From assembly GCA_964276015.1 (NCBI GenBank), contig CAXYDO010000014.1, forward strand, positions 27,199 through 91,198: a stretch of DNA of 64,000 nt, read 5' to 3'. Position 1 is the first letter of the stretch; each line of letters opens with the position of its first letter. Of the stretch, positions 2,690-63,886 are shown in pieces. The DNA comes from an uncultured Alphaproteobacteria bacterium. GTDB taxonomy: Bacteria; Pseudomonadota; Alphaproteobacteria; UBA6615. The notes below the pieces were generated by a model, which had not been told where the DNA came from, made no database searches, and saw only the letters and a program-made list of their open reading frames with translations. A program made the translations under genes and the position numbers.

Positions 2690-3343
2690 ATGCAACTCTT
2701 CAGCTATTGGCGCTCGCTCGCCGCCTTCCGGGTGCGTATCGCGCTTAATCTCAAGGGCCAGGCCTTTGACGTGGTGTCCACGGATCTGATCAAGGGTGAG
2801 CAGTTCGACCCCGCCTATCTGAAGATCAATCCCCAGGGTGTGGTTCCGGCGCTGGTCACCGATGACGGCGGCACGCTGACCCAGTCCATGGCGATCCTCG
2901 AATATCTCGACGAAGTCTATCCAGAGCCTGCGCTGATGCCGTCCGACCTGATGGCACGTGCCCGGGTGCGTGCCTTGTGCATGATCACCGTGGCCGACAC
3001 CCATCCGCTGGTGGTGCCGCGTATCCGCAAATACATCACCCAGGATATGGGCCACAGCGAGGACGAGCTGAACGCCTGGATCGGCAACTGGCAGATGGCC
3101 GGACTGGCCGCCCTGGAAGCCCATCTGGCCGATGACGGGACCTCGGGCAAGTTCTGCGAGGGCGATCAAATCACGCTGGCCGATCTCTGCCTGGTGCCCC
3201 AGGTTGGCGCGGCGATGCTGTTCAAGGTCGACATCTCGCCCTACCCGAACTGCAAGCGCGTCTTCGATGAGTGCATGACCCAGAGTGCTTTCTTCGATGC
3301 ACGCCCGCAAGCCCAGCCGGACTTCCCCGAAGAGATGAAGTAA
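2690..3343 (+). CDS. maiA: maleylacetoacetate isomerase (glutathione S-transferase zeta class)
   Basis: N-terminus MQLFSYWRSLAAFRVRIALNLKG with SxxxR and the GVVPAL motif typical of GST zeta/MaiA. The start was moved to the internal ATG at 2690, where similarity begins. Confidence 0.7.
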   Translation: MQLFSYWRSLAAFRVRIALNLKGQAFDVVSTDLIKGEQFDPAYLKINPQGVVPALVTDDGGTLTQSMAILEYLDEVYPEPALMPSDLMARARVRALCMITVADTHPLVVPRIRKYITQDMGHSEDELNAWIGNWQMAGLAALEAHLADDGTSGKFCEGDQITLADLCLVPQVGAAMLFKVDISPYPNCKRVFDECMTQSAFFDARPQAQPDFPEEMK

Positions 3344-3352
3344 GGGCGACCC

Positions 3353-3796
3353 ATGTCTGAATTCACCTCACCGTCCCGCAAGCTTACCCATAACGGAATC
3401 CGCGCGTTGATCGACGCCGCGGTCGACAAGGCCGACGAGATGGGGGTGCCCATGGGCATCGCTGTCGCCAATGACGGGGCCCGGGTCGTGGGCTATCTGT
3501 TGATGGATGGGGCCCGGGTGCTGGCCATGGAATCAGCCAGCGCCAAAGCGATGACAGCGGCCAGCCACCGGATGCCGACCCACGCGATCAAATACGACAT
3601 TGGTATGGGTCTGGCGGTGTCGACCCAGGGCAAGGTGTTGCCGCTCAAGGGCGGTGTCCCCATCGTCATCGACGGTTTTTGCGTTGGTGGGATCGGCTGC
3701 GGGTCAGGTACCGGTGAGCAGGATCTGGTCGTGGCCAAGGCCGCCCTCGCCGCGGTCGGGGCAGAAATCCCCGACGACGACGTGAGTGAAGGCTAG
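3353..3796 (+). CDS. GlcG/HbpS-like heme-binding protein (DUF336)
   Basis: 147 aa with the GIAVANDGARVVGYLLMDGA and GGVPIVIDGFCVGGIGCGSGTGEQD motifs characteristic of the DUF336/GlcG family. Confidence 0.6.
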   Translation: MSEFTSPSRKLTHNGIRALIDAAVDKADEMGVPMGIAVANDGARVVGYLLMDGARVLAMESASAKAMTAASHRMPTHAIKYDIGMGLAVSTQGKVLPLKGGVPIVIDGFCVGGIGCGSGTGEQDLVVAKAALAAVGAEIPDDDVSEG

Positions 3797-4413
3797 CCCG
3801 CTTTCGCGGCTCCCACTGAGTCCATGAACTGCACCAGCACTTCGTAAGGCTGTGCCCCGACGACACCCTGTCCTTCGGCGACATAGGTGGGAACCCCGGT
3901 GACGCCGTAGCCCCGTGACTTCTCCCAGTCAGCGTCGATCGTGGCCTCGAAGGTGCGGTTTTCGACCACGTCGCGGGCCGCGGCACCATCCAGTCCAACG
4001 CCCTCGGCAATCCTGACCAGCAGGTCGATATCGGCGATGTTTTTCTGGTCCACAAAATAGGCCTGATAAAGCTTCATGTGGATCGCATCGCCGCCGGGCT
4101 GGGTGTCGGCCCACTTCCCGAGCTCCTGTGCGAGGCGGCTGTTATAGGTGTGGGTGCGCTTGGCGTAAGGCAGGCCCTCTTCGTCCATCATGCCCTTCAT
4201 GCGCGTGTACATGGCATCCATGTCCATGTCGCGGCCAGCGAACAGCTCTTCGAGCGACAGGCCTTCCATGGGCGTGTCGGCGTGGAGCGGGAAATGCACT
4301 GTCTGCACGTCGACGTCGTAGGCTTCCTTGAGTTTTTCAATACGCACGGTACTGAGATAACACCAGGGTCAAACGTAGTCGGAGAAGACCTCGAGAACTT
4401 TGGGTTCGGACAT
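3793..4413 (-). CDS. DsbA/FrnE-family thiol:disulfide oxidoreductase with an in-frame TGA (4369..4371) at the first Cys of the CxxC motif; either a candidate selenoprotein (UxxC) or a nonsense pseudogene
   Basis: The track ORF 3793..4347 starts at GTG. Extending upstream in frame gives MSEPKVLEVFSDYV-TGA-PWCYLSTVRIEKL..., which is the FrnE N-terminus FSDxxCPWCY with TGA in place of the first Cys codon. The ATG is at 4411..4413. Confidence 0.5.
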
Positions 4414-4448
4414 GGAAGCGTCGCTTTCGATGGGGTTGCGTGTGGATA

Positions 4449-5663
4449 TTATAGCAGAGGTTCACGCTCTTTCGGGGCGACCAGTACGATAAAAAACAGC
4501 CAGGACAGGGTGGTACACGCGAACATCACAAGAGCCAGCTGCAGGAAAGAGGTGTGGATCAGAGCCACCACAACAAGGGTACTGATGAAACCGCTGCCCA
4601 TCTGAATGAAGCCACCCAGCGCAGCCGCAGAGCCGGCGGTGGCGGGTTTGACCGCCGTCAGTGCCCCGGCCAGGCAGTTGGGGGCCAAAAACCCCGACCC
4701 GATGGAATAGATCGCCAGGGGCAAGATCAGGGGAATCGGGGTGTCAAGGCCGATGAGGGACTGGGCGACCATGATGCCCGTCCCGGTGATGGCCAGCGCG
4801 CCGCCGATCCAGATCATGCGTCCCCGGCTGGTGCGGCGGGCCATCCGGCTAGAGATGAAATTACCGGCGATGTAGCCCATCGAGCCCGAAATGATGAAAT
4901 AGCCGAACACTTGCGGGCTCACCCCCATCAGCACGATCAGGGCAAAGGGCGAGCCGGCCAGAAACGCCTGAAAGGTTGAGCCCATCGCGCCGACGCTCAG
5001 GCTGTAGCCCATGAATTTTCGCATCCCGAACAGGCGCACATAGGTGCGGGCCAGAGCCGGGGCGGTCGTGAACTTGCGCGCTTCTGGCGGGAGGGTCTCG
5101 GCGAGGGTCAGATATGTGGCGAGCAGGGCTGTCGCGCCCATGGCGGCGGTTAACAGGAAATTGGCCTGCCAGCCAAAGAAACTCTCGAGCTGTCCCCCGA
5201 GCAGGGGCGCGAGGGTCGGGGCCACGGCCAGCGACATGCCGAGATAAGCCATGGCCCTTGTGGCGGCCGCGCCGTCACTGGTGTCGCGGACGATGGCCCG
5301 GCTGATGGCGATACAGACGCAGCCCCCGAAGGCCTGGATAATCCGCCCGGCTATCAGGAGCTCGATGCTCGTGGCGGCCGCGCAGGCCAGGCTCGCCAGG
5401 GTAAACAGGACAAGCCCGATCAGCATGGGCTTGCGCCGTCCGATAGCGTCTGAAATCGGCCCCACCACCAGTTGGGCAACGGCAAACGCCCCCAGATACG
5501 CCGACACGGTCAGCTGGACCAGCGACTGGGTGGTCCCCAGATCTTCGGCCATGCTGGGCATGGAGGGCAGAAAAATCGTGATCGCCACCTGACTGGTCAC
5601 CATCAGGGTGACCAATAGCGCCAGGGGTGCGCGGGGCTGCGCTATGGTTTCGCTCTGGGACAT
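4449..5663 (-). CDS. MFS transporter, Bcr/CflA drug-resistance family
   Basis: 404 aa with 12 predicted TM helices and a Bcr/CflA-like N-terminus (ITIFLPSMPSMAEDLG...GPISDAIGRRKP). Confidence 0.75.
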   Translation of the reverse strand: MSQSETIAQPRAPLALLVTLMVTSQVAITIFLPSMPSMAEDLGTTQSLVQLTVSAYLGAFAVAQLVVGPISDAIGRRKPMLIGLVLFTLASLACAAATSIELLIAGRIIQAFGGCVCIAISRAIVRDTSDGAAATRAMAYLGMSLAVAPTLAPLLGGQLESFFGWQANFLLTAAMGATALLATYLTLAETLPPEARKFTTAPALARTYVRLFGMRKFMGYSLSVGAMGSTFQAFLAGSPFALIVLMGVSPQVFGYFIISGSMGYIAGNFISSRMARRTSRGRMIWIGGALAITGTGIMVAQSLIGLDTPIPLILPLAIYSIGSGFLAPNCLAGALTAVKPATAGSAAALGGFIQMGSGFISTLVVVALIHTSFLQLALVMFACTTLSWLFFIVLVAPKEREPLL

Positions 5664-42497: not shown

Positions 42498-42587
42498 GGA
42501 GGGGTGGCCGAGTGGCTGAAGGCGCACGCTTGGAAAGCGTGTATGCGGGTGACCGTATCGAGGGTTCGAATCCCTCTCCCTCCGCCA
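42498..42587 (+). tRNA. tRNA-Ser (anticodon GGA)
   Basis: GGAGGGGTGGCCGAGTGGCTGAAGGCGCACGCTTGGAAAGCGTG-[long variable arm]-GAGGGTTCGAATCCCTCTCCCTCCGCCA. The 7-bp acceptor stem, anticodon loop TTGGAAA, long extra arm, T-loop TTCGAAT and encoded CCA all fit. Confidence 0.9.
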
Positions 42588-42633
42588 ACATTATCATGCA
42601 TTGTGAGATTCATCGCTTCGGCCAACTGGCCAT
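42576..42633. repeat. Left 58-bp direct repeat (attL core) covering the last 12 nt of tRNA-Ser plus 46 nt downstream
   Basis: CTCCCTCCGCCAA[C]ATTATCATGCATTGTGAGATTCATCGC[T]TCGGCCAACTGGCCAT recurs at 49437..49494 with 56/58 identity. Confidence 0.8.
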
Positions 42634-42775
42634 GTAGTTCGAGTTCGAACTGCCCGCGCTGTTGCGCTGGATGGGCTATGATACGGTCGACCAGTCCACG
42701 CAGCGCTGCGGAAGCTTCATCGCGTACCATTGGATCTGCATGAAGGGCTTCTGACAGGTTTGCGATCTTTTGCTT

Positions 42776-43114
42776 TTAGAGGTCGGCCGCATTGGGGTGC
42801 CACTCGATCGTTGTCGGTTCCTCGTCGTTGAACACCACAAGGTCCGAGAGCCTTGCCTCGAGTTTCCGTAATTTCTCGCCGATAGCTCCGAGCTCGTTGA
42901 CGGTACCTTCGGCGATGGCGTCGACGAGACGCGCAATCTGTCGTTCAAGGTTTGCCCTTTCCTTGGCGTGCGTGTTGCGTCGGCGACGTGCGTCCTTTTG
43001 CAGTCTTTGCAGTTCCGCGTGGTACTCGTCCACAAACGTTTGAACGAGTTCGGGCTCCATCAGCTTGTCTTTCAGCCCACCCAGCACACGGTCCTCTATG
43101 TCTTTGGCAGGCAT
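42776..43114 (-). pseudogene. Fragment of a large serine recombinase (coiled-coil region only)
   Basis: FVDEYHAELQRLQKDA...ERQIARLVDAIAEG...WHPNAADL matches the central coiled-coil segment of recombinase-family proteins. The catalytic N-terminus and C-terminus are missing. Confidence 0.4.
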
Positions 43115-43136
43115 GGTTCGGTTGTTGGTGCAGGTG

Positions 43137-43595
43137 CCCTTCTGGCGCGCGGTCGATTACGGAGGCGAGGTGCTCGAAATTTTCGCGACGAAACGCGGGG
43201 ATCGTAGGGCTGCCCTTCAGTTTCTGAAGCGCGCGATGAAGCGGTATGGACATCCGAAAGTGGTTGTCACCGACCGGCTTCGGTCATACCGGGCAGCGAT
43301 GAATGTGATCGGGAATGCCGCCGATCAGGAATACGGCCGCTGGCTGAACAACCGGGCGGAAAACTCACATCAGCCGTTTCGAAGACGGGAAGGGGCGATG
43401 TCGAAATTCAGGGGTGTAAAAACCCTGCAGAAATTCGCCGCCGTTCATGGTTCAACCTTCAACCATTTTAATCTCGACCGCCACCTCAACAGCCGCTCCG
43501 TCTTCAAACAGAACCGCTCCTCCGCGCTGGCCGAGTGGCGTCAACTCCTGGCGCTCGCTAATTCGAGTCTTTTATGGCTTTTAAAAAAAACATGA
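43137..43595 (+). mobile_element. IS6-family (IS26-like) transposase, 5'-truncated remnant (C-terminal ~150 aa)
   Basis: WRAVDYGGEVLEIFATKRGDRRAALQFLKRAMKRYGHPKVVVTDRLRSYRAAMNVIG...GRWLNNRAENSHQPFRRREGAMSKFRGVKTLQKFAAVHGSTFNHFNLDRHL is collinear with IS26 Tnp from about residue 95 onward. Confidence 0.6.
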
Positions 43596-43738
43596 GGTGA
43601 GGGAACAATTTGCTCCCTCACGTCTCAAAACTACGATAAATTTTTATTTGATAGTCGTTCTCAAAACCAAAGATTATCTTTATACGTATAGATCCACATG
43701 TAAATTTGGGTGCTATTTAACAACAAACAGGGAATATC

Positions 43739-44455
43739 ATGGATAAGTTAATTATGCTTAACCCCGCCGATTATGTTGGGGTAAGTTTTTGGATCATTTC
43801 AGCTGCAATGGTCGCCGCTACGTTTTTCTTCTGGGTTGAGCGTGATAGAGCGGTTGGCAAATGGAAAACGTCCCTTACGGTCGCCGCGATGGTAACTGGT
43901 ATTGCGGCCATTCATTATATGTATATGCGCCAAGGTTGGGTCTACACCGGTGAAAGTCCAACGGTCCTTCGGTACGTAGACTGGTTGCTAACTGTCCCGC
44001 TACAGATTGTTGAGTTCTACCTCATCCTGGCTGCAATGACGGCCGTTGCGACCGGATTGTTTTGGCGGCTACTCGTCGCCTCTTTGGTGATGCTGATTGC
44101 TGGTTATCTCGGTGAGGTAAATAGCGCCAATCCAACGGCACTGTGGGGATTCTTCATCGTTGGTATGGCTGGCTGGATTTACATCCTGTACGAAATCTTC
44201 GCAGGCGAAGCGAGCCGCATTAATGCAAGTGAAGGCACTGTCGCTGGCCAGAAGGCTTTCGGGGCACTGCGTTTGATAGTCACCGTCGGGTGGGCTATTT
44301 ACCCGCTCGGCTACATCTACGGATATGTCGGTGGCGGCGATGTCGCTGGGCTTAATCTGATCTACAACTTGGCTGATTTTGTGAACAAAATCGCCTTTGG
44401 AGTAGTGATCTGGGCTGCTGCAACGTCTGATAGCGCCAGCAAACCGGCTTCTTAA
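43739..44455 (+). CDS. proteorhodopsin (light-driven proton pump, DTE motif, predicted blue-tuned)
   Basis: 238 aa with 7 TM helices. RYVDWLLTVPLQIVEF carries the D97/T101/E108 equivalents with Gln at the position-105 equivalent. The Schiff-base Lys is in NLADFVNKIAFG. The protein is collinear with SAR86 GPR/BPR. No signal peptide is present. Confidence 0.9.
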   Translation: MDKLIMLNPADYVGVSFWIISAAMVAATFFFWVERDRAVGKWKTSLTVAAMVTGIAAIHYMYMRQGWVYTGESPTVLRYVDWLLTVPLQIVEFYLILAAMTAVATGLFWRLLVASLVMLIAGYLGEVNSANPTALWGFFIVGMAGWIYILYEIFAGEASRINASEGTVAGQKAFGALRLIVTVGWAIYPLGYIYGYVGGGDVAGLNLIYNLADFVNKIAFGVVIWAAATSDSASKPAS

Positions 44456-44471
44456 TAGTCTGGTAAATGTC

Positions 44472-44512
44472 AAGGTATGTCCGACAGCTGTCGGACATAC
44501 CTTACTTTTTTT
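44472..44512 (+). terminator. rho-independent terminator after the rhodopsin gene
   Basis: Perfect palindrome AAGGTATGTCCGACAG/CTGTCGGACATACCTT (44472..44503) followed by ACTTTTTTT. Confidence 0.7.
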
Positions 44513-44525
44513 AAGGGGGACCGTC

Positions 44526-44930
44526 TTGCACAGGCAATTTGCCAAGAGCTTTCGCGGGGCTACGGAGCAAGCCGTGCCGCGAGTTGGTACAACACAGAGA
44601 TCCGAAGAAGCGTTGGAAGAAGCGATAATAGCGCTCTTGCCCACGAAGAAAAGTTCGCTCTTTAAGGTAGCGCATTCTCATTTTAGCCAATTTGGTAAAT
44701 TACTACGTGGTCGTACCGCATGGGCGGTAAGTGAAGCCGTAACGCTAAGCCCGGCCTGCGCGCAAAATTGGGCCGCGCGGTTACAGGAACAATTGAACAT
44801 CTGCCGCCAAGAATGCGATGTTCTTCCGGTTCAGATTCAATCCGCATTGGCACCATTAGTAAACTATCTCGAGCACGCTACAACGTCCGTTCGAGCACGC
44901 GCGATGGATACTGCGCGTATTTGCGTTTGA
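44526..44930 (+). CDS. hypothetical protein (134 aa) in the slot normally occupied by crtE
   Basis: TTG-start ORF whose TGA overlaps the crtI ATG (TGATG). It shares the island's low GC. No recognisable family. Confidence 0.3.
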   Translation: MHRQFAKSFRGATEQAVPRVGTTQRSEEALEEAIIALLPTKKSSLFKVAHSHFSQFGKLLRGRTAWAVSEAVTLSPACAQNWAARLQEQLNICRQECDVLPVQIQSALAPLVNYLEHATTSVRARAMDTARICV

Positions 44931-46471
44931 TGGAGGCAACCAGAATTTCCGATATTACGCTCGACGCAGAAAACAGCGCGGGACGGGTCATCGTCATTGG
45001 TGGCGGTTTTGGGGGCATGGCTGCAGCTTTGCGTGCACGAGCGATGGGGTTCTCGGTAACTCTTGTTGAGCGGCTCGATCATTTAGGTGGTCGCGCTCAA
45101 GTTTTTGAGCGCGACGGCTTTAAACATGACGCCGGTCCGACTGTTATCACAGCGCCATTTTTGTTTGAAGAATTGTACCAATTATTCGGCGAGAACCTGA
45201 AAGATCACCTCACCTTCACACCACTAGAGCCTTGGTATCGTTACTATTTCCAAGACGGTCGAAGCTTAGACTATAGCGGTGATCAAGACCGAATGGCGGC
45301 CGAAATTAGCAAATTTTGTCCCGCAGACGTGGCCGGTTACGCCGCTCTAGTGGCCGCATCCCGAAAGATTTTTGACGTTGGCTTCACCCAATTAGCCCAT
45401 CGCCCATTCATCAATTTTGGCTCGATGGTTAGACAAATACCGGCGTTGCTTCGTCTCCGCGCAGACCGCTCGGTGAGCGGCCTAGTCGCCAAGCATATCC
45501 GTCACCCTTTATTGCGGCGCGCCTTCTCGATTCAGCCACTTTTGGTTGGTGGCAACCCTTTTACAACAACCTCTATTTATTCTCTAATCCATTACCTTGA
45601 GAGAAAATGGGGGGTGTCTTTTTGCATGGGGGGAACCGGTGCTCTGGTTTCGTCACTTGTGGATTTAATGGCTCGACAAGGTATCGAAATTTTCACTGGC
45701 GTCGACGTTGAGCGCATCGCTATATCAGGGAATAGTGCTAGCGGAGTCATTCTTGCGGATGGCCGCAATTTTCCTGCAGATCACGTCATTTGTAACGCAG
45801 ATCCACCAAACGTCTACCGCACACTATTGTCTGATGGGGGGCGCGTTGCGCGGCGTCGCAAACGCTTGCTTCCCGAGTCGATGACGAAATATTCTATGGG
45901 GCTTTATGTGCTTTTTTTTGGTACCCGTCGGAAATACCCGGAGGTAGCGCATCATACTGTCTGGCTGGGTCAAAGATTTAAGGAATTACTTGCTGACATA
46001 TTTGACCGCGGTCAGTTGTCAGAAGACTTTTCTCTCTACATCCACCGGCCAACTGCGACCGACCCTAGTTTCGCCCCGGAGGGATGTGACAGTTTTTATG
46101 TACTTTGCCCCGTGCCTAATTTGCAGACCGACCTAAATTGGCCGGTAGTCGGTGAAGACCTTCGCAACCGCATCGTTGAAGCTCTTTCGGATACTATATT
46201 ACCCGATTTAAAAAGTCATATCACAAGCGAATTCTGGATGGATCCCAATGATTTTCGAAATGATTACCGCTCTCATCACGGCGCAGGATTCTCAATCGCT
46301 CCAATTTTGCGCCAATCAGCATGGTTCCGTTATCATAACCGCGATCCACATATCGGAAATCTCTACTTCGTTGGAGCCGGCACCCACCCAGGCGCTGGCC
46401 TGCCCGGGGTTGTAAGCTCCGCCAAGGTGGTCGAAACACTGCTCCGCGAAAAATCTATCGCTACCGTCTGA
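44930..46471 (+). CDS. crtI: phytoene desaturase
   Basis: FAD fold RVIVIGGGFGGMAAALR and the CrtI-typical GGNPFTTTSIYSLIHYLE and YFVGAGTHPGAGLPGV motifs. The start was set to the ATG at 44930 (MEATRISD). Confidence 0.9.
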   Translation: MEATRISDITLDAENSAGRVIVIGGGFGGMAAALRARAMGFSVTLVERLDHLGGRAQVFERDGFKHDAGPTVITAPFLFEELYQLFGENLKDHLTFTPLEPWYRYYFQDGRSLDYSGDQDRMAAEISKFCPADVAGYAALVAASRKIFDVGFTQLAHRPFINFGSMVRQIPALLRLRADRSVSGLVAKHIRHPLLRRAFSIQPLLVGGNPFTTTSIYSLIHYLERKWGVSFCMGGTGALVSSLVDLMARQGIEIFTGVDVERIAISGNSASGVILADGRNFPADHVICNADPPNVYRTLLSDGGRVARRRKRLLPESMTKYSMGLYVLFFGTRRKYPEVAHHTVWLGQRFKELLADIFDRGQLSEDFSLYIHRPTATDPSFAPEGCDSFYVLCPVPNLQTDLNWPVVGEDLRNRIVEALSDTILPDLKSHITSEFWMDPNDFRNDYRSHHGAGFSIAPILRQSAWFRYHNRDPHIGNLYFVGAGTHPGAGLPGVVSSAKVVETLLREKSIATV

Positions 46472-46485
46472 GGAGAAATTCGATC

Positions 46486-47421
46486 ATGGGCTGCACCTTC
46501 GGTTCGAAATCAGCTGAAACGGCGGCGAATGAGATTCTCGCAGCGCATGGTAAGTCTTTCTACTGGGCGCGGCGCTTTTTAGGGCCCGTAGCGGCAAGAC
46601 AAGCGACCTTACTCTACGCCTTTTGCCGACGACTTGACGATATCGCGGATGCCGATAGTCCTGGCGGACTAGAACGTTTAAAAGCGATTGATGCGGCCCT
46701 CGCCGTGGGCGTAGCTGACGGCGATGATCACGTCGCCACATTTCTTTCTCTCAGCAGCGAAATCAATCTTCCCGTGAACGCGGCTCGCGATTTAATCGCC
46801 GGGTTAATTTTTGACCAGGGCGAAGTGCTTTTGGCTGATGAAGATGCTCTGATCGTTTACGCGTACCAGGTAGCAGGGACCGTTGGGCTAATGATGTCGC
46901 CAATCCTGGGGCGTCACGACCCCGTAGCCGACGCTTTCGCTATCGACTTGGGGATAGCAATGCAGCTCACTAATATAGCCCGTGATGTCGCCGAAGACGC
47001 TGACTTAGGTCGACGCTATTTACCAGCATCTTGGTGTGGCCCGATCAGCCCGTCAGAGATTCGCCTGGCGAGCGCTTCCCCTCTATCTCCTGGCAGAGAT
47101 GAAGTCGCGGTGGCCGTAGCCAAGGTTCTGGTTCAAGCTGAAACTTTCTACACCTCTGGTCTTGCAGGGTTGGCCTATTTGCCGATCCGCAATGATCTTG
47201 CGATTGGCATTGCGGCAACCGTTTACCAAGCCATTGGCCACCGTTTACGCCGACGCCGCTATGCCTGGTGGAAAAAGCGACAGGTAGTTGGTGTTAGCGG
47301 AAAAATTCTGGCTACTGGGGCAAGCCTGCCGCGGCTCTTTAGCCGCCGTGCGCCAGGCCCTCATGATGAACGGCTTCACCGAGCCTTGAAGGGAATCGCG
47401 AGTGTCGATGCCTTGCACTGA
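46486..47421 (+). CDS. crtB: phytoene synthase
   Basis: Squalene/phytoene synthase motifs: YAFCRRLDDIAD, YQVAGTVGLMM and DLGIAMQLTNIARDV. Confidence 0.85.
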   Translation: MGCTFGSKSAETAANEILAAHGKSFYWARRFLGPVAARQATLLYAFCRRLDDIADADSPGGLERLKAIDAALAVGVADGDDHVATFLSLSSEINLPVNAARDLIAGLIFDQGEVLLADEDALIVYAYQVAGTVGLMMSPILGRHDPVADAFAIDLGIAMQLTNIARDVAEDADLGRRYLPASWCGPISPSEIRLASASPLSPGRDEVAVAVAKVLVQAETFYTSGLAGLAYLPIRNDLAIGIAATVYQAIGHRLRRRRYAWWKKRQVVGVSGKILATGASLPRLFSRRAPGPHDERLHRALKGIASVDALH

Positions 47422-48541
47422 ACAGGCAGCCTATAGAACTGCCGTGATCGGTGGCGGTTGCGCGGGGCTGACACTAGCCCGCCACTTAACCGCTGCTGGA
47501 GTTTCGCCGCTGGCAGTAATTGATCCCGGCGCCAGCCGGCCGGATCATATCTGGGGTTACTGGGATGACGGCGGAGCTAATTTAAGTCTTCCGCGGCCGC
47601 TTTCTTCCGCCTCCTGGCGGCGCTGGGCGGTAATCACGGAACGTCAGAAAGTTGTGTTGAACGGCGATCGCTTCTGCTACAGGGCTCTCTCATCACAGCA
47701 TTATGAAGAGAGTTTGCGCTCGGATATATCGGGCAGTTCGGGAACGTTTGTTAACGCAACTGCCAAGAGTTGCACGCCAACGAAAGACGGTTTTCGACTT
47801 ACCTTGGACAATGATTTTGAACTGTCTGCCGAAGCGGTTTTTGATAGCCGTCCACCAAAACCACCAGTCGGCGCCTTATTACAGCATTTTGGCGGCTGGC
47901 ATGTGCGGATGGAGCGACCAGTTTTTGATACAAAAACTGCGATTTTGATGGATTTTAGAGTTTCCCAGGATGAGGGAATACACTTTATCTACCTGTTACC
48001 CTTTAATGCCGAACATGCCTTGGTTGAATCTACAGTGTTCTCTCCGACGCCCAAGTCGTCGGAGTGGTATGATAGTCAAATCAAAGCCTACTTGTCCGAG
48101 CATTACTCAGGTGTACAAGCCACCATCGAGGGTCGCGAGGCCGGCGTCATCCCGCTTGCGCCGCTAGTTTCTCCGAATTCTTTTGGCACCGCCATTGGGC
48201 TCCGCGCCGCAACGCATAGAGCCTCCAGCGGCTACGCTTTCTCACAAATTCAGATACAGGCGGCAGACTTAGCGTTAGACCTGATAGCGGATCGGCCTGC
48301 GTGTCCACGGCCCGGCTGTGACAGCTTCGAAGCTTGGATGGACAACGTCTTCCTCTCGGTCCTCCGCCGGTCCCCCGACCGCGCCCCGGAAATTTTTCTC
48401 CGCGCGGCGCGTGCCCTTACCGGGGACCAATTCGCTACTTTCATGCGTGGTCAAAGCGGCTGGCCCACTCGCCTCCGGCTAATGTCTGGCCTCCCCCTCG
48501 TATTATTCCTCAGCGCAGCTTTGGACAGAGGGTCGCGATGA
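47402..48541 (+). CDS. crtY: lycopene beta-cyclase
   Basis: N-terminal FAD motif VIGGGCAGLTLA and the CrtY-like FIYLLPF region. It overlaps crtB by 20 nt. Its stop overlaps the blh ATG (ATGA). Confidence 0.8.
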   Translation: MSMPCTEQAAYRTAVIGGGCAGLTLARHLTAAGVSPLAVIDPGASRPDHIWGYWDDGGANLSLPRPLSSASWRRWAVITERQKVVLNGDRFCYRALSSQHYEESLRSDISGSSGTFVNATAKSCTPTKDGFRLTLDNDFELSAEAVFDSRPPKPPVGALLQHFGGWHVRMERPVFDTKTAILMDFRVSQDEGIHFIYLLPFNAEHALVESTVFSPTPKSSEWYDSQIKAYLSEHYSGVQATIEGREAGVIPLAPLVSPNSFGTAIGLRAATHRASSGYAFSQIQIQAADLALDLIADRPACPRPGCDSFEAWMDNVFLSVLRRSPDRAPEIFLRAARALTGDQFATFMRGQSGWPTRLRLMSGLPLVLFLSAALDRGSR

Positions 48542-49342
48542 GCTGGGAGGTATTAATTCCAATGTTGATGGTTTTGTTAGTCGGGTTTCCCCATGGCGCT
48601 GCTGACGGAGTGTTAGCAGTCAATCTAGCACGTCGAGGGACCATCGGGCTCGGCGCATTTTTTGCACTTTACGGAGTAATCACTCTGTCCGCGGCGGCCT
48701 TTTGGTTGTGGCTGCCTGTGCTGAGTTTAATCAGTTTTCTGCTGCTGTCGGTGGTTCATTTTGGGACCCTCGATAGCAGGCACGACCGCCTTGTGGGCCG
48801 GCGCACATTACGTACCCTCGTCCATGGAAGCACCCTTATTTGTATAATTCCGTGGGCGCATGAGAGGGAAGTGACTGAAATCTTCGGGCTTTTAATCAGG
48901 TTCGGAGGTCGTGTGGCTGGTCCAAATCTTGGCTGCCGCCGCTCTGGCATGGGCTATCGGGGTAGTGTGGCTCGGCCTGGCCTTTGGCCCGGCCGGTCAA
49001 CGTGCTGCCGGAGAATTGATTGTAGTAGCAGCCGTTTTAATAATTTTGCCGCCACTCTGGGGGTTCGCTTTATATTTCTGCACCGTTCACTCTTGGCGCC
49101 ATATGAACGCAATTGTGGCCACGCTGGCCCCCTTCGGCCCAGCAGCATTTCGTTTGGTGGCTTTGCTCACACTGGTCAGTTTTCTGCTAGTCATTGCCGG
49201 GGCGCTCGTCTTGCCGGCAGTAGATATCGACAGCGGGGTTATCCGGGCGACCTTTATTTCGCTGGCAGCCTTAACTGTGCCTCATTTTCTCCTGATTGAT
49301 GTTTACCGCGTTTTGTCACGTCTTAGAGCTACTAGTCGATAA
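48538..49342 (+). pseudogene. blh: beta-carotene 15,15'-dioxygenase (Brp/Blh family), split by a +1 frameshift near 48880-48915
   Basis: The N-terminal half (MSWEVLIPMLMVLLVGFPHGAADG...SVVHFGTLD) is in frame 1 from 48538. The C-terminal half (WLVQILAAAALAWAIG...FCTVHSWRHM...LTVPHFLL) is in frame 2 (track ORF 48911..49342). Conserved His motifs are split across the two frames. Confidence 0.55.
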
Positions 49343-62203: not shown

Positions 62204-62943
62204 CGCCGCCATGTCGATCACGAACCCGCGCATTATCGGGGGCGCGTCACCGGGGGGCGCCAACCGGTCTGTGAGACCGAGGTCCTGTCGGGCACGCTGA
62301 CCCTGTCGGCCTCGATGACGTTTGGCCGCTATGTGCTGGCCCCGGTCGTGGCTGGGTTTCTGGATGCGCATGCGCAGATCGGCGTGGCGATGCTGCAGGT
62401 AGAACGGATGGTCGACCTGATCGATGAAGGTGCAGGTCTCGCTGTGCGCATCGGGCCGTTACCGGATTCCACGCTGATGGCGCGGCGGGTCGGTTTTGTT
62501 CGACGCATGCTCGTGGCCAGCCCGGATTATGTTGCGTCACATAGTGCGCCAGGCACACCGTCAGGGTTGGCAGACCATCAGGTGATACGTTTACCGGTGT
62601 GATTCAAAAAGGTCTCTGGCGGTACCGGGACGGGGCGCGGGAGAAGACCCAGCTGGTAACGCCGCGTCTGGAAACCAATGATGCTGCGACCGCAATTCGG
62701 GCCGCTGAGGCCGGGCACGGGATCACCGGGGTGTATTCCTACACGGTGGCAAAATCGATCCAAGCCGGGCGGCTGGTGCCAGTGCTCGACACGGTGATCC
62801 CGCCGTCGGTTCCGGTTCATCTCGTTTATCCGCAAGGGCGTTTTGTGGACCCGAAAGTGCGCGCTTTCATGGCATTCGCCGCGCCGCTTCTAACGCAGGC
62901 ACTCGAAGGGCTGACGCCCGCGGGCGCGGGTCAGTCGTCGTAA
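62204..62943 (+). pseudogene. LysR-family regulator remnant: N-terminal HTH domain missing, and the substrate-binding domain frameshifted near 62590
   Basis: Frame A reads ...LSGTLTLSASMTFGRYVLAPVVAGFLDAHAQI...RIGPLPDSTLMARRVGF...LVASPDYVASH. Frame B reads ...WRYRDGARE...VTPRLETNDAATAIRAAEAGHGI...GRLVPVLD...PVHLVYPQGRFVDPKVRAFMAF. Both match the LysR C-terminal domain. A stop lies immediately upstream at 62201. Confidence 0.45.
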
Positions 62944-63770
62944 AAAGCGATCGTGCGGGTTTCGATGCTCTGGCGTCGCGCAGCGTTGGCGGGACTGGTC
63001 GGGTCTTCGAAGGCGGTATGCGCCGTCCAGCGGGCACGGCCGTCCAGCTCGGTGTCGTAGCATTTCAGCAGGATGAGTTCGTCGGGCTGCATCTGCGGGA
63101 AATAGACCCAGCGATGGTCCGGGCTGTAGCGGGTGCGGTGGATTTCGCCGACCCGGTCCTTGTATTTCAGGTCCATGAGAATCATGTCGTCGTCGACCAG
63201 AGACTGGGCGTCGCAGATGCCGAGCGGAATTTCTTCGACTGTGCCTTTGATCGAGCGCCAGACATTCACATAGACATAGCGTTTCTTCAGCGCCGCCGCG
63301 GCCTCGTCGGCGGGCAACAGATCTCGGATGCGCTGCGGCGCGGACAGGTCGGTGTAGTCGTTGTGGACCACATGTACCGGCTCGCGCAGCTTGTGGCTGG
63401 TGCGGGTGTCTTCGTCAGCCACCCGAAGCGTGTGGTCAAAGACGAGTACCCGCGACGCGCCGGTGGCCGCCGCCACGATCTTCTCGACTTCGGGGTTGTA
63501 AATGCTCTCGATCTGGCTTGAATCGAGGAAGTCCGTGACCGCAGTTTCCTGCCGTTGGAAGGCAAAGCCATTGCTGTCGAGGGTCAGCTGATCGGCGACA
63601 GGGCGAGCGTCATAGATCGGGACCGTGCGGTGGTCAGGCACCTCGTCGCGCCGGTTGGATTCACCCATCTCGGCGATATAGGTCACGGGCCGAATGCCGT
63701 TATCGACCACATAATTCACGGTGGCCTCGACGAACGGCAGGGTTTGGTTGTCGTAGGCGGACATGGTCAT
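62931..63770 (-). CDS. hypothetical protein (possibly a CmcJ/NvfI-like oxidoreductase)
   Basis: 279-aa ORF with coding-like composition and a conserved-looking core (VLVFDHTLRVADEDT...HVVHNDYTD). The family assignment is tentative. Confidence 0.35.
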   Translation of the reverse strand: MTMSAYDNQTLPFVEATVNYVVDNGIRPVTYIAEMGESNRRDEVPDHRTVPIYDARPVADQLTLDSNGFAFQRQETAVTDFLDSSQIESIYNPEVEKIVAAATGASRVLVFDHTLRVADEDTRTSHKLREPVHVVHNDYTDLSAPQRIRDLLPADEAAAALKKRYVYVNVWRSIKGTVEEIPLGICDAQSLVDDDMILMDLKYKDRVGEIHRTRYSPDHRWVYFPQMQPDELILLKCYDTELDGRARWTAHTAFEDPTSPANAARRQSIETRTIAFYDD

Positions 63771-63886
63771 CGGACGGCTTCCTTCTGCGGGTCTGTCCCT
63801 ATCAAATAGAGCAGATCGTCTGCTTGTCGAGCCTGAAATCATCAGGTCGGGACATTGCGAGGGTGAAACGGGCGCTTAGAGGCGCT

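Follow-up and report, generated by a model that had tools for sequence, protein, structure and literature searches.

The DsbA-like selenoprotein family

Selenoproteins of the DsbA type carry selenocysteine (Sec) in the place of one cysteine of a thioredoxin-like redox motif. A "DsbA-like protein" (COG2761, UXXC, nine sequences) was among the selenoprotein families first reported in 2005 from the Sargasso Sea metagenome (Zhang, Fomenko & Gladyshev; PMC1088965), and a 2026 review lists a "DsbA-like protein form 1, PF01323, UxxC" (PMC13188914). DsbA-like selenoproteins are also found in cultured Sec-using bacteria, e.g., Anaeromyxobacter dehalogenans and Desulfovibrio desulfuricans (PMC1794560). 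The gene described here is located on the minus strand, at 3793..4413, of a 64,000-nucleotide stretch of contig CAXYDO010000014.1 (hereafter the window) assembled from an uncultured alphaproteobacterium. Judged by its sequence, it is a further member of this published family and not a new kind of selenoprotein.

The features that characterize the family, i.e., a DSBA domain, a TGA aligned with Cys, conserved reading-frame flanks, a hairpin with G in the loop, and sequence similarity, are all found in the window gene. When the window protein was compared by blastp with the sequences of the 2005 supplement, AACY01473751 showed 70% identity over 87 aa (E=1e-48). This sequence reads DYV-u-PWCFLSTVRIEKLK, and its hairpin is identical base for base, CTCAGTACCGTGCGTATTGAA. 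AACY01601659 (57% identity, E=3e-85) and AACY01028493 (53%, E=3e-81) have the same stem with a UGUAA loop. The window protein shares with the published family the PF01323 domain, a UxxC motif about 11-17 residues from the N-terminus, and the downstream peptide LSTV(R/S)IEKLK. Nothing of substance separates them, the window gene being an ortholog from a marine alphaproteobacterial lineage of higher GC content (60% for the window gene vs 40% for the gene of AACY01028493). In distant published members (21-24% identity), the position of the hairpin is kept but not its sequence.

FrnE, CxxC oxidoreductases, and bacterial SECIS elements

FrnE, a cytoplasmic relative of DsbA, has a second redox motif, CxxxxC, in its C-terminal tail. 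Among solved structures, the best match of the window protein is FrnE of Deinococcus radiodurans (PDB 5cnw, 5cp1; E=1.4e-21, query residues 6-202). The CPWC of FrnE is aligned with the UPWC of the window protein, and neither of them has a signal peptide. FrnE differs in having Cys instead of Sec and in its length of 260 aa, the alignment ending at FrnE residue 220. The FrnE-type Cys-containing tail is absent from the window protein, which ends at residue 206 and whose translation includes Cys18 as its sole cysteine, so that a redox pair can be formed only by U15 and C18. The periplasmic DsbA of E. coli likewise has a thioredoxin fold interrupted by a helical insertion, with a CxxC-type motif opening helix 1. 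Unlike DsbA, the window protein has no signal peptide, its motif directly follows strand beta1, and it reads UPWC vs CPHC. The closest relatives of the window protein are FrnE-type cytoplasmic proteins and not periplasmic DsbA.

In the E. coli formate dehydrogenase genes fdhF and fdnG, the selenocysteine insertion sequence (SECIS) is a hairpin of the coding region that lies 3' of the UGA and binds SelB. The window gene resembles them in a stem-loop beginning about 11-13 nt after the UGA, a GU at about 22-23 nt, and a C after the UGA. The sequence of the stem is different, the 7-bp stem of the window gene has no bulged U, and the binding of SelB is here a prediction.

Reading frame and predicted product

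The minus-strand frame runs from an ATG (4413..4411) to a TAG (3795..3793) and includes 206 codons plus the stop. Its translation is MSEPKVLEVFSDYV-TGA-PWCYLSTVRIEKL. The TGA (4371..4369) is codon 15 and occupies the first Cys position of the CxxC motif (FSDYV-U-PWCY), 14 codons after the start. The resulting UxxC redox motif, Sec15-Pro-Trp-Cys18, spans 4360..4371 and corresponds to the UXXC given for the DsbA-like family (PMC1088965). With the TGA read as Cys, residues 7-196 match Pfam PF01323 (DSBA) over profile positions 2-189 of 191 (E=2.5e-33).

A first-pass annotation made from the letters of the window had proposed this gene as a candidate selenoprotein. The minus-strand coordinates that it gave for the ATG (4411-4413), the TGA (4369-4371), and a hairpin (4338..4354) were all recovered on reading the sequence. 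Its placement of the TGA at the first redox Cys of a DsbA/FrnE CxxC agrees with the Pfam match and with the FrnE CPWC alignment. The proposal as a whole, a UxxC selenoprotein with a bacterial SECIS, is supported by the conservation of the TGA, selection on the coding sequence, a covarying hairpin, and published homologues, as developed below.

No signal peptide is seen in the product, as the N-terminus MSEPKVLEVFSDYVU is devoid of a hydrophobic leader and residue 15 is already the first of the redox motif. The protein is therefore best read as a probable cytoplasmic thiol-disulfide oxidoreductase of the FrnE type with a DSBA-like thioredoxin fold. The complete coding sequence is kept at full length in 41 TGA-form loci. 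A mechanical call of open reading frames (ORFs) opens inside the 206-codon frame, at the GTG of 4345..4347, which gene callers take as the start of a 184-aa product. This codon is Val23 of the full frame and lies within the loop of the SECIS hairpin.

Of the window's 60 gene-like ORFs, 26 have TGA as their stop. TGA is thus not reassigned genome-wide, and recoding would be local to codon 4371..4369. A search of the window for in-frame TGA codons left the DsbA-like gene as the sole candidate with a redox motif. Other Sec-like in-frame TGAs, sought in long flanking ORFs and by read-through of ORF ends, were set aside as too noisy at 60% GC. The neighboring glutathione S-transferase (GST) gene was considered as a second selenoprotein because "GST-like" is a published Sec family. 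It was rejected because a U/C-PW motif is missing from its N-terminal sequence MQLFSYWRSLAAF and extension upstream through a TGA gave nothing of interest.

Distribution of TGA and Cys forms

Homologues were searched among 5.8 billion proteins, after which the corresponding DNA was fetched and the codon read at the Cys position. The nearest homologues, about 25 with 74-98% identity, are all called as proteins of 184-185 aa that cover 89% of the query, their start being the same downstream codon as in the window. Homologues at 58-66% identity are full length. In scans of genomes and metagenomes, TGA was read in 35 of 171 loci and TGC/TGT in the other 136. Six further TGA loci with 67-71% identity were found in other genomic contexts, bringing the TGA total to 41. 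An in-frame TGA opposite a conserved Cys in at least two Cys homologues is a criterion for a selenoprotein gene; here the Cys is present in 136 loci and in FrnE. The TGA also aligns with the "u" of the published Sargasso sequences, as it does with the first Cys of CPWC in 5cnw.

The carriers of TGA include the window, four contigs with an identical protein, and 15 JGI/ENA metagenome contigs. Others are at least seven alphaproteobacterial species known as metagenome-assembled genomes (MAGs), three divergent lineages (67-71% identity, different neighborhoods), and two gammaproteobacterial MAGs (Pseudomonadales, OM182 clade) at about 58% identity. The TGA-form clade takes in CALSNJ01, JAYPPL01, JABJAG01, JAURLR01, JAYQBG01, and JAYOFE01. 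Further carriers are JAPKDV01 in the alphaproteobacteria and JAQXDL01 and CAJJAA01 in the gammaproteobacteria.

Every homologue with at least 71% identity to the window protein has the TGA together with the same hairpin. This is the opposite of what the first-pass annotation had named as a warning sign, i.e., close Cys orthologues in which the hairpin is not conserved. Both forms are found at 64-69% identity; Cys forms occur only at 68% or less, and lower down nearly all homologues have Cys. CAWFEN01 (L023) and JAERTE01 (L019) are among the nearest genomes with a Cys form. The same annotation had named a TGT or TGC on resequencing as another result that would refute its proposal. Dozens of independent assemblies, among them the four contigs with an identical protein, give TGA, and the same codon is read in assemblies from ENA, JGI, NCBI, Logan, and the Sargasso Sea shotgun data.

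Selection on the codons flanking the TGA

Codon usage was compared in 25 distinct TGA-form genes, all of which have TGA at the Sec position (25/25). The 14 codons preceding the TGA show no indels, and 23 of the 25 genes start at the same ATG. The gammaproteobacterial TGA forms open two codons farther upstream, behind AGGAG, and the start of one divergent form (L178) is GTG. The fractions of synonymous and non-synonymous pairs are 0.21/0.20 in the 14 upstream codons vs 0.28/0.20 in the rest of the gene. EVFSDYV is constant as a protein segment while its third bases vary. The substitutions upstream of the TGA thus follow the pattern of translated sequence, which a pseudogene, a sequencing error, or a start at GTG 4347 is unable to explain.

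Nowhere in the gene is synonymous variation lower than in the seven codons that form the hairpin (0.07 vs 0.28). The CTC (Leu), GTG (Val), and GAA (Glu) codons among them do not vary in 25/25 genes, while the Cys forms draw on many synonymous codons at these sites. As the hairpin lies within the coding region, the peptide L-S-T-V-(R/S)-(I/V)-E that follows the motif is fixed as well.

The predicted SECIS hairpin

The predicted SECIS hairpin (4337..4355, minus strand) begins 13 nt after the UGA and forms the central part of a 76-nt fold in its minimum free energy (MFE) as well as its centroid structure. Its 7-bp stem pairs the 5' arm UCAGUAC (4355..4349) with the 3' arm GUAUUGA (4343..4337) around the loop CGUGC (4348..4344). 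The first-pass annotation had drawn CAGUAC/CGUGC/GUAUUG at 4354..4338, a hairpin that holds and is longer by one U-A pair, reaching 4355..4337. It had also placed the GU of the loop at about 22 nt after the UGA, where G25 and U26 (4347..4346) are indeed found, at 22-23 nt. Both bases are invariant in 13/13 aligned SECIS sequences, distant published members included, and are expected to be the apical-loop G(U) that would contact SelB. A small coding-region hairpin placed immediately 3' of the UGA, its small apical loop containing G(U), is the layout of a bacterial SECIS, and a C directly follows the UGA in all members.

Conservation of the structure was assessed in 13 sequences, including the published Sargasso Sea members, two of them at only 21-23% protein identity. 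Stem positions are paired in 98.9% of cells vs 26-42% in slid controls, and the observed covariation score was reached by none of 500 shuffles. Double-sided changes affect pair 21-31, seen as UA, CG, and GC, and pair 19-33, seen as AU, GC, and GU; two further pairs show one-sided changes compatible with wobble. In the 25 codon-compared genes, the sole synonymous change of the stem, AGU to AGC, is always accompanied by AUU to GUU, so that a U-A pair becomes C-G. In the divergent form L174, the G.U wobble of the stem is replaced by G-C. All TGA forms have the same hairpin at one offset.

Proposed decoding and competing explanations

The locus is very probably a true selenoprotein gene encoding a 206-residue DsbA/FrnE-type oxidoreductase with Sec as N-terminal nucleophile (U15-P-W-C18). 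The TGA stands at the Cys position and is conserved, purifying selection acts on both sides of it, the hairpin covaries, and homologues are published. The recruitment of SelB, the actual insertion of Sec, the cytoplasmic location, and the redox chemistry are what these observations would imply. Translation would open at ATG 4413 and would not terminate at UGA 4371..4369. The hairpin of the mRNA (4355..4337) would recruit SelB-GTP-Sec-tRNA(Sec), Sec would be inserted, and the ribosome would proceed to TAG 3795..3793. The product would then alternate between a selenol/thiol and a selenenylsulfide (U15-C18) state and may reduce or isomerize disulfides, as two-Cys FrnE-type proteins do.

Several observations weigh against this reading. 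The genes selA, selB, and selD and a tRNA-Sec were not found in the window and the fetched flanking loci (1.9 Mb in total). These had been searched by tblastn with the SelA, SelB, and SelD proteins of E. coli K-12 and by ARAGORN, with an Rfam scan of the window in addition. Only cross-matches to the LepA GTPase were obtained, and tRNA-Ser(GGA) is the only tRNA of the window. Neither a SECIS nor a tRNA-Sec family was matched in the Rfam scan of the window. According to Pfam, the 20 window ORFs of sel-gene size encode mostly housekeeping or metabolic functions, e.g., ThrRS, PheS/T, LepA, RpoN, and ABC transporters. It is mainly because sel genes are not established for the source genome that the selenoprotein assignment is held as very probable and not more firmly. 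The stability of the hairpin is unremarkable (z=+0.81 against dinucleotide shuffles of the 76-nt fold). Among 111 distinct Cys-form homologues, 19 also show a generic stem of at least 6 bp whose loop includes GU, and the mean MFE after the TGA or Cys codon is equal in the two forms (-12.1 against -11.7 kcal/mol). Hairpin stability was dropped as evidence for these z-score and Cys-form results. To our knowledge, extra stability is not required of short bacterial SECIS hairpins. By itself the hairpin proves nothing; where the TGA lies, that it is conserved, and that just this hairpin is kept all go far beyond what chance would give. In two loci, L016 and L105, one pair of the stem is disrupted. 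The Sec codon is not immutable either, as two relatives (L180, which is P0031, and P0036) have CGA (Arg) at this position. Finally, the functions of the family are still uncharacterized according to the 2026 review (PMC13188914), and Sec incorporation is without experimental evidence for any member.

In L180, the CGA (498-500) is one base off TGA and stands in the same hairpin context with a CGGGC loop. This Arg codon may represent an inactive variant, an intermediate in the loss of Sec, or an error in a lone 1.2-kb contig.

The simplest competing explanation, already raised in the first-pass annotation, is a nonsense mutation from TGT/TGC to TGA that inactivated a DsbA-like gene. It has in its favor that a single base separates these codons, that gene callers end or start there with their 184-aa calls, and that other pseudogenes had been mentioned in the window. 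Such an inactivation is contradicted by the retention of TGA in 41 loci, with identities as low as 67% among alphaproteobacteria and about 58% among gammaproteobacteria, in a frame devoid of indels whose start codon is kept and whose 14 upstream codons are under purifying selection equal to that of the rest; it is extremely unlikely. The same one-base distance would allow for an error of sequencing or assembly, but the identical TGA of the independent ENA, JGI, NCBI, Logan, and Sargasso Sea assemblies makes this practically inconceivable. A third option takes the 184-aa protein from GTG 4347, a DsbA-like protein without CxxC, as the real product, with the upstream conservation being regulatory. 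All public databases call this product and the GTG is invariant in 25 close genes, but it lies in the loop of the hairpin, is not preceded by a Shine-Dalgarno sequence, and is replaced by GTA in the published AACY01028493 and AACY01601659, so that it is not a conserved start. Moreover, upstream variation is codon-wise and concentrated at third positions as in translated sequence, and such a product would miss strand beta1 and the entire active site (aligned to FrnE residues 13 onward). A genuine start at GTG 4347 is accordingly regarded as very unlikely.

A UGA followed by C is a weak termination context. As this C is present in all members and the window and fetched loci yielded no sel genes, the UGA might be read through by a near-cognate Trp- or Cys-tRNA in genomes without sel genes, the hairpin being a generic stimulator. 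Against Sec-free read-through stand the exact coincidence of the UGA with the redox Cys, the hallmark of Sec/Cys pairs, and a hairpin with the layout of a bacterial SECIS and an invariant loop GU. The family has moreover been classed as selenoproteins on the same grounds, and DsbA-like selenoproteins exist in the cultured Sec-users Anaeromyxobacter and Desulfovibrio. Read-through of this kind is improbable as an explanation of the locus. A narrower form of it, in which sel genes are missing from only some lineages and these read the UGA in a different way, is a less likely variant of the Sec-based history considered in the next section.

Evolution of the Sec and Cys forms

In a neighbor-joining tree, most alphaproteobacterial TGA forms fall into one clade, and a Cys form (L023) stands beside the divergent TGA forms L174 and L178. 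The gammaproteobacterial TGA forms (L063, TGA region at ~8458, and L069, at ~10040; loop CGUGA) group with gammaproteobacterial Cys forms (L072, L075) and not with the alphaproteobacterial Sec clade, even though their hairpin is nearly the same as in the alphaproteobacterial forms. This grouping suggests that the Sec/SECIS segment was transferred or recombined, or else that Sec was converted to Cys repeatedly. The same hairpin is found across alphaproteobacteria of 60% GC, Sargasso genomes of 40% GC, and OM182/Pseudomonadales gammaproteobacteria.

Several Cys forms (L026, L117, L111, L114, L072) retain CPWCYLST(P/A) together with UCAGUAC, or a closely similar sequence, as 5' arm. In these genes, five of the seven stem pairs are kept and the GU of the loop is lost. 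Such partial stems may be remnants of a former SECIS. It is conceivable, though rather doubtful, that a Sec form with an almost frozen 19-nt SECIS moved between lineages or was repeatedly converted to Cys. A dynamic evolution of Sec and Cys forms has already been described for bacteria, and the tree and the Cys forms fit this picture. Should transfer or conversion prove true, the family would offer a natural series for tracing the gain, transfer, and loss of a coding-region SECIS.

Annotation of the clade in public databases

The protein is widespread in the sea, and its public entries for the clade are all 184-185 aa long. They go under "predicted DsbA family dithiol-disulfide isomerase" or "hypothetical protein", and no public cluster member is annotated as a selenoprotein. 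The truncated entries span dozens of clusters (P0001, P0003, P0004, P0020, and others), some of them found on 57-67 contigs of up to 1 Mb. No NCBIfam model was matched at its cut-off, the sub-threshold matches including, e.g., the Rcas_1661 seleno-lipoprotein family with 35 bits vs 190. With uniformly truncated entries and no NCBIfam model, the error is systematic. Neither the active-site residue nor the dependence of these abundant alphaproteobacteria on selenium can thus be seen in the annotation.

The invariant nucleotide signature TGACCNTGGTGYTWYCTCAGYACYGTRMGTRYTGAA or the peptide U-PWC(Y/F)LSTV could serve for an automatic correction of these calls. The gene leaves the knowledge of selenoproteins unchanged, and its Sec codon and SECIS are recognizable from raw sequence alone.

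Upstream region and genomic neighborhood

Upstream of the selenoprotein gene, on the same strand, lies a Bcr/CflA-type major facilitator superfamily (MFS) transporter gene (4449..5663, minus strand). A possible -10 box, TATAAT (4448..4453, minus strand), located 35 nt before the ATG and overlapping the MFS stop, was seen by eye. A consensus promoter scan upstream of the gene returned no full sigma-70 -35/-10 site. A motif, CTCTGCTAT(A/G/T)xT, is shared about 35-50 nt before the ATG by the window, L001, L005, and L176 despite a differing upstream gene. In the window, this conserved motif gives the TATAAT; it may be a dedicated promoter or operator.

On the plus strand, a gene for an HbpS-like protein (PF03928; 3353..3796) lies downstream of the selenoprotein gene and is convergent with it, the stop codons overlapping. 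In L001 (9395-9838) and L005 (9376-9819), relatives with 88% and 76% identity, the HbpS-like gene instead separates the MFS gene from the DsbA-like gene, lying upstream of the latter in divergent orientation. Its position reflects a small local rearrangement and, as it differs between the window and these two loci, no operon is deduced from it. The GST gene mentioned above occupies 2690..3343 (plus strand), and other neighbors encode a family III coenzyme A (CoA)-transferase and a metallo-beta-lactamase (MBL)-fold hydrolase. This neighborhood is common to close alphaproteobacterial relatives but not to L174 or L178.

The "several other pseudogenes" that the first-pass annotation had noted in the window are not evident in the ORF and Pfam survey, which was not aimed at pseudogenes. 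Sixty gene-like ORFs tile the window and, among the 30 scanned with Pfam, 29 have a family match, mostly over the full profile length. A 303-aa ORF (62931-63842) has no Pfam match, and the ORF of an IS240-type DDE transposase (43065-43595) covers only profile positions 20-134 of 139, i.e., a partial piece. Split genes were seen in other assemblies (L002 and L010) and not in the window.

This transposase piece belongs to a low-GC block (42498-49299; 0.51-0.54 vs about 0.60) that comes straight after the tRNA-Ser(GGA) gene (42498-42587). The block also includes a bacteriorhodopsin-like gene (43739-44455), a crtI-like oxidase (44768-46471), a phytoene synthase (46486-47421), a lycopene cyclase (47402-48541), and a beta-carotene 15,15'-dioxygenase (48334-49299). 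The block has the appearance of an island for proteorhodopsin and retinal synthesis gained by lateral transfer.

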